In this document: piece by piece, positions 30,001-33,000 of the stretch | Numbering within the stretch: the first letter of the stretch is position 1 | How the letters are laid out: every line of letters starts with the position of its first letter | Origin: a virus | Lineage: Duplodnaviria; Heunggongvirae; Uroviricota; Caudoviricetes | Reading direction: 5' to 3' (one strand) | Virus record (IMG/VR): IMGVR_UViG_2695420685_000022 | Location: 1 to 34,422 of that record | DNA length: 34,422 bases | Program-made: the position numbers

Positions 30001-33000
30001 GCCAGGTCGCTGGTTCAAATCCAGCAAGAGCCACCAACCGCCACTAGCTCATCAGGAAAGAACGTCACCCTGTGCGAGATTCGGAGTCCCCGGTGGCGGT
30101 CCATTATCGGTATTCTGCGTTGTTAGCTCAGCCGGACAGAGCAATTGCCTTCTAAGCAATCGGTCACTGGTTCGAATCCAGTACAACGCACCACACTTAT
30201 TTTCCAGGCTCGCTTTGGCGGGCCTTTTTTGTATCTGCGCCACGCCCGGCGCATATCAACCACAGAGCCTTTCGGGGGTGAGCTTACGGAGTGGTCAGTG
30301 TGACTTTCTCTGTGGGCAGATCGCTCCCGGGCGTTGGCTCACCCACCCAAAGGAACGTCACGATGTTTGGTATTTTTGGTAAAAAAGCCCGCAGAGCGGC
30401 AACGGAAATTAAAAAGTTTGAGAAACGCGATCTGGCACAGGCGGTGATTAACGCTGCATACCTGGTGGCCTATGCAGATGGTGAATGCGAGGCATCCGAG
30501 AAAGCGAAGATCGAACAGGTCTTACGTAATCAGCCTGCGTTGTCTGCGTTTACCTCGGAAATTAATGCGATTAGCGCAACNNNNNNNNNNNGTTGTTACA
30601 GACGCCTTCCGCAGTGAAGGCTTTTTTATTTGTGGTAAATGGGCGGCTGGTGGGTGTTAGGGGCACTCACCAGCCATCTGCTCATGCGTTGTGGTCACAA
30701 GCAAACCTCAGGCCCATCTGCTTTGCGCAAAAGCGGTATGAGCCTATCAGAGAAGTGCTTATTGATCTATGGCTAATACTGTAAAAATATCCAGTTGTGA
30801 GTTAATCAACGCCGACTGCCTGGAATTTATCCGGTCGTTACCCGAAAATTCTGTTGACCTGATAGTCACGGACCCGCCGTACTTTAAAGTGAAGCCTGAG
30901 GGCTGGGATAACCAGTGGAAGGGCGACGATGATTACCTGAAGTGGCTGGACCAGTGTCTGGCGCAGTTCTGGCGGGTGCTGAAACCTGCCGGAAGTCTTT
31001 ACCTGTTCTGTGGTCATCGCCTGGCATCTGATATCGAAATCATGATGCGTGAACGCTTCAATGTGCTGAACCATATTATCTGGGCGAAGCCGTCCGGACG
31101 CTGGAACGGGTGCGACAAGGAAAGCCTGCGGGCGTATTTTCCGGCCACAGAACGCATTCTGTTCGCGGAACATTATCAGGGGCCGTATCGTCCGAAAGAT
31201 GATGGCGATGAGGCGAAGGGCAGGGCACTGAAACAGCATGTGATGGCCCCGCTGATTTCTTACTTTCGTGATGCGCGTGCTGCTCTTGGGATAACGGCAA
31301 AACAGATTGCAGATGCCACAGGAAAGAAAAACATGGTGTCGCACTGGTTCAGTGCCAGTCAGTGGCAGCTGCCGAACGAAAGCGATTATCTGAAATTACA
31401 GGCCCTGTTTGCCCGGGTGGCAGAAGAGAAGCATCAGCGCGGTGAACTGGAATGGCCACACCACCAGCTGGTCAGCACATACAGTGAACTTAACCGGCAA
31501 TATGCCAGCCTGCTGGAGGAGTACAAATCTTTGCGGCGTTATTTTTCTGTATCGGCTGCTGTTCCGTATACGGATGTCTGGATGTATAAGCCTGTACAGT
31601 ATTATCCGGGCAAACACCCCTGTGAAAAACCGGCAGATATGTTGCGTCAGATAATAGAGGCCAGCAGTCGTCCGGGTGATTTGGTTGCCGACTTTTTTAT
31701 GGGGTCAGGTTCCACGATAAAAGCCGCGCTTTCGCTTGGTCGTCGGGCAATAGGCGTTGAGCTTGAGGCTGAACGGTTTGAGCAGACGGTGAGCGAGATA
31801 AGAGAAATTCTGACGTGTAAAGCTGTTGACTGATTAATCAATGCTTATTTTTTCATAAGTCTTGTTGCAATATATAAGTATGGGGTGTAAAGTTGTTCTC
31901 GAAAATAATCATGTTTTCTCACGAATCAGAGGGGGGATAATGATTGAGGTTCGATGGACAAGGACAGCCCTGAAGCAGTTACTTCGTGTGGATACGCGGT
32001 ATCGGCAGGCGATAAAGGATAAGGTCGGTGCGCTAAAGGATTTTCCTCTGGTAGCCATGGATTTTAAAAAGCTATCAGGGAGTGACAATCGATTCCGTTT
32101 GAGGGTCGGCGTGTACAGGGTTATTTTTGATGTTGAGGATGGTGATCCTGTTGTCCTGGATATTAAGGAAATTAAGCGCAGAAGCACAACCACATACTAA
32201 GGGAGGCTGGCGGGAGACCGCCAGTTTGCTGAACGACATTCAATCGCGAAAGGCAATGATATGAAAAACAGTGTCCAGTTTATTACTGATAATGCCGGTG
32301 TTAGAACCGGGGTCATTATGTCAGTTGCTGAATATGAACGGCTGTTAAGTCTGGCAGATCCTGATGATGATTTTGAAAGCATCCAGTATGAAGCCGGAGA
32401 GAATGACAATGAAACAATACCTCATGAAGTAGTATCCATCATGATTGATGATGATGTGTCATTGTTGGCAGCATGGCGGATTTACAGGCGAATGACTCAA
32501 CAGGAAGTGGCGGAGCGCCTGGGGGTTAAACAGTCAGCCGTATCTCAGTTTGAGAGAGCAGGAGCTCCGCGAAAATCAACACTGGAAAAACTGGCTGAGA
32601 TTTACAACTGCCGACCAAATCAGTTGGCTGATTAATCCTGAGTTTGGTTTTCGTAGCGATTGCATTTTTCTTATCTGCTTGCCGTTGTAGGTAGCGTGTA
32701 TTTGCATGTTGTTTTGTAGTTAACCTTATGGTTGGCTGAATTTTGTTCATCAATAAAAAATATCCCTCTCTGATCTTTAAGGTTCGCTTTGGCGGACCTT
32801 TTTTTTATTTCCGCGCCACGCCCGGCGTACATCAAAAACCACAGAGCCTTTCAGGGGTGAGCTTACGGGATGGTCAGTGTGACTTTCTCTGTGGGCTGGT
32901 CACCCCCGGGCGCAGGCTCACCCACTAAAAGGAAAAGTCACGATGTTTGGTATTTTCAAAAAGAAAACCCGCAGAGCAGCAACTGAAATTAAAAAGTTTG

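Follow-up and report, generated by a model that had tools for sequence, protein, structure and literature searches.

A probable autonomous type II toxin-antitoxin cassette at the late-leader cargo site of a Stx-phage-like lambdoid prophage

The toxin-antitoxin pair analysed here lies in the virus record IMGVR_UViG_2695420685_000022, whose 34,422 nucleotides (nt) we hereafter call the window, i.e. the whole stretch of DNA under study. The closest described systems are RelBE, HigBA and MqsRA, together with type II pairs carried as prophage cargo. In RelE, a set of basic and aromatic residues catalyses mRNA cleavage in the ribosomal A site, and the E. coli antitoxin RelB binds DNA via an N-terminal ribbon-helix-helix. 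In Vibrio cholerae HigA2 the neutralising part is N-terminal and the helix-turn-helix (HTH) C-terminal, an arrangement also predicted for the antitoxin described here. Prophage-borne modules such as ParE_SO/CopA_SO of Shewanella CP4So, PfiT/PfiA of Pseudomonas Pf4 and relBE of the E. coli K-12 Qin prophage have been proposed to retain the prophage or to modulate phage production; none of them is known in the slot between the Q gene and the lysis genes, where phages encoding Shiga toxin (Stx) carry stx.

In the window, a gene for an 86-residue RelE-family toxin is followed by one for a 124-residue HTH antitoxin. Both open reading frames (ORFs) were found where the original prediction had placed them, at 31940-32635, and the XRE-type HTH that it had assigned to the antitoxin C-terminus was recovered as an HTH_3 domain at amino acids (aa) 72-120 of 124 (3.7e-12). 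We consider it probable that this pair is an autonomous type II toxin-antitoxin moron occupying the late-leader cargo slot of a lambdoid, Stx-phage-like prophage. Literature searches returned no study of this particular pair.

Pairing, regulatory signals and genomic setting

To describe the surroundings of the pair, 105 loci were sampled and reduced to 76 non-redundant contexts. A RelE-family ORF stands directly upstream of the antitoxin gene in about 56 of the 76, on prophages, plasmids and chromosomes alike. Both genes travel together, toxin first, over many genera, as an adjacent two-gene operon conserved on mobile elements, which is what characterises a type II system.

The cassette carries candidate regulatory signals of its own (Table 1). 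A putative sigma-70 promoter precedes the toxin gene and is accompanied by three putative operator repeats; the segment 31843-31879 is the sole 40-nt stretch of the 34-kb window with three ATAAG/CTTAT sites. In all subfamilies a -35/-10 pair is located about 45-60 nt before the toxin ATG, the positional equivalents being TTGATC-17-TATAGT in Salmonella, TTGACA-17-TATATT (11/12 consensus positions) in Yersinia and TTGACG-17-TATATT in Photorhabdus. Three to five short half-site copies flank or overlap this promoter, and their sequence is specific to the subfamily (ATAAG/CTTAT, TTAGAT/ATCTAA, TATAG or TATAAC); ATAAG/CTTAT half-sites are also repeated upstream of the Salmonella, Photorhabdus and Xenorhabdus copies. 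Half-sites that differ between subfamilies and keep one position are what would be predicted were every antitoxin to recognise an operator of its own.

A GC-rich stem-loop (z = -5.5, none of 200 shuffled sequences being equally stable) stands immediately 3' of the toxin stop codon. Most family members have a hairpin at the same site with different stem sequences; it may serve in mRNA stability, attenuation or processing. The pair is followed by an intrinsic-terminator-like hairpin, and analogous terminators lie 3' of the pair in Salmonella and Yersinia, so that the layout terminator, promoter, toxin, antitoxin, terminator recurs in E. coli, Salmonella and Yersinia. The cassette has a GC content of 43 %, against 51.6 % for the neighbouring methylase gene. 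At the sequence level, it thus combines the layout of an independent unit, presence or absence between the same flanks (see below) and a deviating composition, i.e. the hallmarks of a moron.

A pyrimidine-rich box (CTCTTT-like; TTTTCTC in the window) at about 31905-31936 is conserved 8-12 nt upstream of the toxin Shine-Dalgarno sequence and also occurs in the 5' untranslated regions of relatives (e.g. loci L007, L021, L077 and L095). A hairpin formed by this box and the Shine-Dalgarno sequence was considered and dropped, RNAalifold having found no consensus structure on the alignment. Rfam returned no family in the toxin-antitoxin region.

The setting of the pair was established on finished genomes. 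Among 5426 complete E. coli genomes, 11 contain a 921-nt region holding it, and identity is 99.8-100 % in nine of these and 95.4 % in the other two; phage PPyecE_EH1910 (LC567835) has the region at 99.9 %. The pair is always 3' of Q there, so that the absence from finished assemblies which would have refuted the original prediction does not apply. Gene order is invariably Q, a 65-aa ORF, DNA methylase, RelE toxin, HTH protein, TerB (TciA) and DUF3927 (TciB), then usually nanS, and after it holin, DUF1327 and lysozyme, with three different Q families upstream of the block in different E. coli prophages. E. coli O39:NM F8704-2 (CP050998; loci L114-L116) holds three methylase/toxin-antitoxin/TerB blocks in three different prophages, one of them with an insertion sequence element where Q is expected.

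In Stx2a, Stx2c, Stx2d and Stx2e phages, stx2 is immediately preceded by a homologue of the methylase (copy D of the window, 85-90 % identical), and one is also present in an LT-IIb phage. The Stx2a phage LC567842 reads Q, 65-aa ORF, methylase (90 % identical), tRNA-Met, tRNA-Arg, tRNA-Arg, stx2A, stx2B, nanS and holin; both it and PPyecE_EH1910 are named for the yecE integration site. Where LC567842 has tRNAs and stx2AB, the PPyecE_EH1910-type phage has the pair and tciA/tciB. The proposal that the pair sits in the late-operon position used for toxin cargo by Stx phages is borne out by this comparison. Its placement directly 3' of methylase copy D is confirmed in the window, where the stop codon of copy D lies 107 nt before the start of the toxin gene.

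We then compared the position of the pair in more distant relatives. The methylase is missing in Salmonella, where the pair (antitoxin 65-73 % and toxin 74-77 % identical) has a PF06323-type Q on one side and the holin, endolysin and Rz genes on the other. That of Yersinia kristensenii is placed between a PF06530 Q and a different lysis cassette. In Pseudomonas phage LESphi2 (locus L131, 3748-4312) the pair is found between Q and tRNA-Met/holin, and in Pasteurella phage Pmp14 (locus L130, 3699-4363) between Rz and terS, on the opposite strand in both, where late transcription would run antisense to it. According to a phmmer scan with hallmark proteins from annotated loci, which yields lower bounds only, late-region genes are near the pair in at least 19 of the 76 contexts: six of these have it in the Q-holin gap in the orientation of the late genes, seven in the same gap in the opposite orientation, and three between the lysis genes and terminase. 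Other copies adjoin type VI secretion islands or metabolic genes or are carried on plasmids, many without phage genes nearby. The preference for the Q-lysis slot is real.

These positions bear on the possibility that the pair is tied to Q-dependent late transcription, as a lysis timer or a host shut-off device expressed essentially by read-through, like stx. Its co-orientation with the late operon, directly after Q and its terminators, in E. coli, Salmonella and Yersinia is what such a role would predict. However, a conserved promoter with operator-like repeats precedes the toxin gene in every subfamily, at least seven other phage contexts have the pair on the opposite strand of the Q-holin gap and three have it between the lysis genes and terS, and many copies are chromosomal or plasmid-borne with no phage genes nearby. 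We therefore regard this explanation as improbable. Since the pair occurs in either orientation in the Q-lysis gap, dependence on Q read-through is not a feature that its relatives conserve. Its location on the opposite strand of that gap in other phages also makes it unlikely that expression solely by Q-dependent read-through is its defining regulation.

Toxin and antitoxin families

The toxin ATG is preceded by GAGGGGGG. The sole Pfam match of the protein is PF05016 (named ParE_toxin), over aa 4-77 (E = 8e-8; 33.2 bits, above the curated cut-off of 23), which places it in the RelE/ParE superfamily, and PHROG 1213 ('RelE-like toxin') matches it at 7e-21. A word-indexed search found just nine close relatives, and an exhaustive search was required to retrieve 1588 family representatives at E <= 0.001.

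A 71-sequence profile of the toxin family was run against solved structures. It matched nine RelE structures at E <= 0.0023, those of Methanocaldococcus jannaschii RelE3 (E = 4.5e-8), Pyrococcus horikoshii aRelE (1.5e-7) and E. coli RelE (5e-6) being the best, followed by Thermus and Mycobacterium tuberculosis RelE (8e-4 to 2.3e-3). YoeB came at E = 0.014 and ParE structures at 0.033 and 1.2, and no HigB structure was matched even at E <= 10. Alignment against E. coli RelE by hhalign gave a probability of 95.3 % (E = 2e-8, 86 columns); the RelE sequence used in this step agrees with the PDB alignment. In a 125-member alignment, R53 (96 %), R55 (94 %), R60 (98 %), R81 (97 %) and Y86 (97 %) are conserved. 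They occupy the positions of RelE K54, R56, R61, R81 and Y87, R51 stands opposite RelE K52, and the Tyr matching Y87 is the last residue of the protein. Alignment thus shows that the predicted toxin keeps the basic and aromatic residues that RelE uses for mRNA cutting, and from the sequence evidence we conclude that it is a RelE-type toxin, closer in profile comparison to RelE than to ParE, YoeB or HigB.

The original assignment to a RelE/ParE type consequently holds for the superfamily and is narrowed to RelE within it. A ParE-type gyrase poison, in place of an mRNA nuclease, is suggested by the name of the only Pfam match and by the GenBank record of phage PPyecE_EH1910, which labels the gene 'plasmid stabilization protein'. 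PF05016, however, spans the whole RelE/ParE superfamily, and the RelE-ward profile scores, the 94-98 % conservation of the RelE-equivalent positions up to the terminal Tyr, and the RefSeq name ('type II toxin-antitoxin system RelE family toxin') all make a gyrase poison very unlikely.

Inside the toxin gene, an antisense promoter-like site (TTGTCA-16-TAAAAT, 10/12) runs from 32088 to 32061 on the minus strand, with an equivalent at the same codons in Salmonella (L003, 5823-5796). Because it lies within the conserved DFKKLSG coding motif, its conservation may be due to coding alone.

Phrog_7241 matches the antitoxin over its full length (5e-51). Its homologues are 40-73 % identical, nearly all 119-144 aa long, and come from Salmonella, Photorhabdus, Xenorhabdus, Yersinia, Pectobacterium, Serratia, Pantoea, Haemophilus and other genera. 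The family alignment comprises an N-terminal 'IQFITDxxG...VVLPIxEYERLL' segment, a variable acidic linker, a near-invariant 'NDDETIPHEVV' motif and the HTH. Of 26 N-terminal halves from the family, 25 match the RelB-like antitoxin model PF18506 (best 8.9e-9) and 12 match PhdYeFM; the antitoxin of the window itself falls below the PF18506 cut-off (14.5-14.7 bits vs 27). An AlphaFold2 model (mean predicted local distance difference test 87) has a beta-hairpin and helix (aa 6-32), a linker modelled with less confidence and a domain of five helices, the latter superposing on P22 c2 and 434 Cro at 1.5-1.7 A. With this model Foldseek recognised the HTH only and found no solved full-length analogue, and a PDB profile search with the N-terminal half gave no match.

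Several observations weigh against an autonomous toxin-antitoxin moron. The candidate promoter of the E. coli pair is weak, with 8/12 consensus positions, and lies below the promoter-scan threshold; the toxin has no match in PADLOC-DB 2.0 and the antitoxin matches only generic HTH models there; and about 20 of the 76 contexts hold an antitoxin homologue without a recognisable upstream toxin ORF (e.g. Haemophilus influenzae L010 and L026, and Photorhabdus L014, L015 and L020). These toxin-less contexts are orphan antitoxins or cases of toxin decay, and they show that the HTH protein is able to survive without a partner; toxin-antitoxin decay often ends in an orphan antitoxin. That the 124-aa protein is mainly a transcription regulator, as its PHROGs annotation ('transcriptional regulator' only) and the toxin-less contexts might suggest, with the 86-aa gene as a decaying passenger and no working system, is highly improbable given that orphans commonly arise in this way, that the toxin of the window is intact, with all conserved catalytic positions, and unchanged across hundreds of assemblies (some 900 contigs or more on record), and that the HTH protein has a RelB-like antitoxin domain as its N-terminal half. 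RefSeq labels the antitoxin 'helix-turn-helix domain-containing protein'.

Composition of the window and the cargo block

The window is a scaffold in which N letters join four pieces: one N at 16282, and 11 N each at 28674-28684 and 30581-30591. The start of a methylase gene (about 300 nt) recurs four times, at 15797, 28053, 28674 and 30581; copies A and B are fragments, and copies C and D are full. Two of the pieces are early-right arms of prophages, and each closes with a Q gene and the broken start of a methylase gene. Another holds methylase C, tRNA-Met, tRNA-Arg and a broken TerB gene, and the last one holds the entire toxin-antitoxin pair (Table 1). As the window is a scaffold, the linkage of copy D to a Q gene, and the prophage to which the pair belongs, are not to be read from it.

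Table 1 Positions of the genes and signals discussed, in window coordinates
Feature	Position	Strand	Remarks
Q gene	15042-15437		PF06530 type
Q gene	27106-27669		DUF1133 type
tRNA-Met(CAT)	29961-30036	+	3' of methylase copy C
tRNA-Arg(TCT)	30117-30193	+	3' of methylase copy C
Last piece	30592-34422		Contiguous; methylase D, toxin-antitoxin pair, TerB, DUF3927
Methylase copy D	30769-31833		
Left edge of mobile block	31773-31833	+	Includes last ~20 codons of methylase copy D
Putative operator repeats	31843-31848, 31855-31860, 31874-31879		GCTTAT, ATAAGT, ATAAGT
Putative sigma-70 promoter of the pair	31865-31893	+	TTGCAA, 17 nt, TAAAGT
RelE-family toxin gene	31940-32200	+	86 aa
GC-rich intergenic stem-loop	32201-32230	+	Directly after toxin stop; -20.6 kcal/mol
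Antitoxin gene	32261-32635	+	124 aa; RelB-like N-terminal part, acidic linker, C-terminal Cro/cI-type HTH
Intrinsic-terminator-like hairpin	32779-32800	+	Terminator scan; followed by TTTTTTTT, eight-T run

When alleles C and D of the window are aligned, homology ends at about 31775-31790, in the last methylase codons, and resumes at the terminator hairpin at about 32780. Between these limits one allele has two tRNAs and the other the toxin-antitoxin pair, and the same terminator and TerB gene lie 3' of both. The terminator that the original prediction had noted after the pair is thus present as a hairpin and T-run; as it is common to the tRNA allele, it is part of a common joint and not peculiar to the pair. 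The hairpin and a conserved linker of about 110 nt form a repeat (D6; 32779-32934 and 30205-30355) that is common to the tRNA allele, the toxin-antitoxin allele and E. coli phage L073, which has no TerB, and it has the appearance of a shared joint for recombination between cargo cassettes.

Phage L073 also helps to place the left edge. It has no methylase; homology starts near 31773 and runs to about 32912, terminator included, and this block stands directly after a different Q and its terminator. The last ~20 codons of methylase D occur in this methylase-less phage and are unlike those of copy C, which makes the methylase gene chimeric at its 3' end. A functional link between pair and methylase was considered and rejected: the methylase occurs with tRNA or stx alleles without the pair, and the pair without the methylase in Salmonella, Yersinia and E. 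coli L073.

Further downstream, the small RNA family STnc100 (RF02076) has a strong Rfam match at 33543-33715 on the plus strand (104.7 bits vs a gathering score of 47). It lies just 3' of DUF3927/tciB, and a terminator comes after it at 33740-33758.

Proposed mechanism and comparison with known systems

In the mechanism that we propose for an autonomous moron, the toxin would cleave mRNA in the ribosomal A site and the N-terminal part and linker of the antitoxin would neutralise it. The antitoxin, alone or in complex, may bind the ATAAG/CTTAT repeats at the promoter of the cassette and repress it. The pair would then be expressed in the lysogen from its own promoter, independently of Q, with the downstream terminator presumably keeping its transcripts out of the lysis genes; on induction, Q-modified polymerase would also read through the pair in co-oriented phages. 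Prophage or host may benefit because other phages are excluded (abortive infection) or because the prophage is retained. Both fit, and we lean slightly towards defence.

A bolder reading, which we find doubtful, is that the RelE/RelB-like-HTH module represents a previously unrecognised anti-phage (abortive-infection) family that has repeatedly colonised the Q-to-lysis gap in at least five genera. Its position might let the prophage keep the module on in lysogens, late transcription of the prophage then overriding it where co-oriented or silencing it by antisense where anti-oriented. Were this true, the Stx slot would be a general weapons bay exchanging exotoxins, tRNAs and defence cassettes.

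The pair itself is a recognisable, ordinary member of a well-known class, its toxin being already labelled in RefSeq and PHROGs, and a specialist will find no surprise in these results. Their interest lies in the slot: the site at which lambdoid phages carry Stx, LT-II and tRNA cargo also accommodates a toxin-antitoxin cassette with its own signals, and in several genera unrelated phages have acquired the same kind of cassette in their Q-lysis gap. Between identical flanks, tRNA plus stx, tRNA only and the toxin-antitoxin pair form a natural set of alleles, with which the role of prophage-borne pairs in phage exclusion, prophage retention or induction can be addressed. For annotation, 'ParE / plasmid stabilization protein' becomes a RelE-type predicted mRNase and 'transcriptional regulator' its antitoxin.

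Among known systems, RelBE (E. coli K-12; M. jannaschii, PDB 3bpq; P. horikoshii, PDB 1wmi) provides the best sequence and profile matches of the toxin, in which the catalytic Arg/Lys and C-terminal Tyr positions are conserved, and the antitoxin N-terminus matches the 'RelB-like' PF18506 at the family level. Unlike RelBE, gene order is reversed here, with the toxin first, and DNA binding is predicted to rely on a C-terminal Cro/cI HTH. In these last two respects the locus resembles HigBA (Proteus Rts1, E. coli and V. cholerae HigBA2), which also has a toxin-first operon, a RelE-superfamily toxin (here a predicted ribosome-dependent mRNase) and an XRE-HTH antitoxin. This resemblance is one of layout, i.e. 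gene order and HTH, and not of sequence family: besides the lack of HigB structures among the toxin matches, no HigA model was among the NCBIfam matches. MqsRA likewise has the toxin first and an antitoxin with an N-terminal toxin-binding part and a C-terminal XRE HTH; the MqsA model TIGR03830 matched the HTH region alone, with 20.9 bits where the cut-off is 61.8, and the N-terminal part of the antitoxin has no CxxC zinc motif and no cysteines in aa 1-60.

As a type II pair carried as prophage cargo, the locus is comparable to ParE_SO/CopA_SO, PfiT/PfiA and Qin relBE, from which it differs in toxin branch, antitoxin and position within the prophage. With the other cargo of the Q-lysis slot (tRNAs with stx2AB, LT-IIb, tciA/tciB) it shares the site, 3' of the same methylase and 5' of nanS and holin. 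It differs from that cargo in being predicted to act on the bacterium's own translation and not as an exotoxin, and in carrying its own putative repressible promoter.

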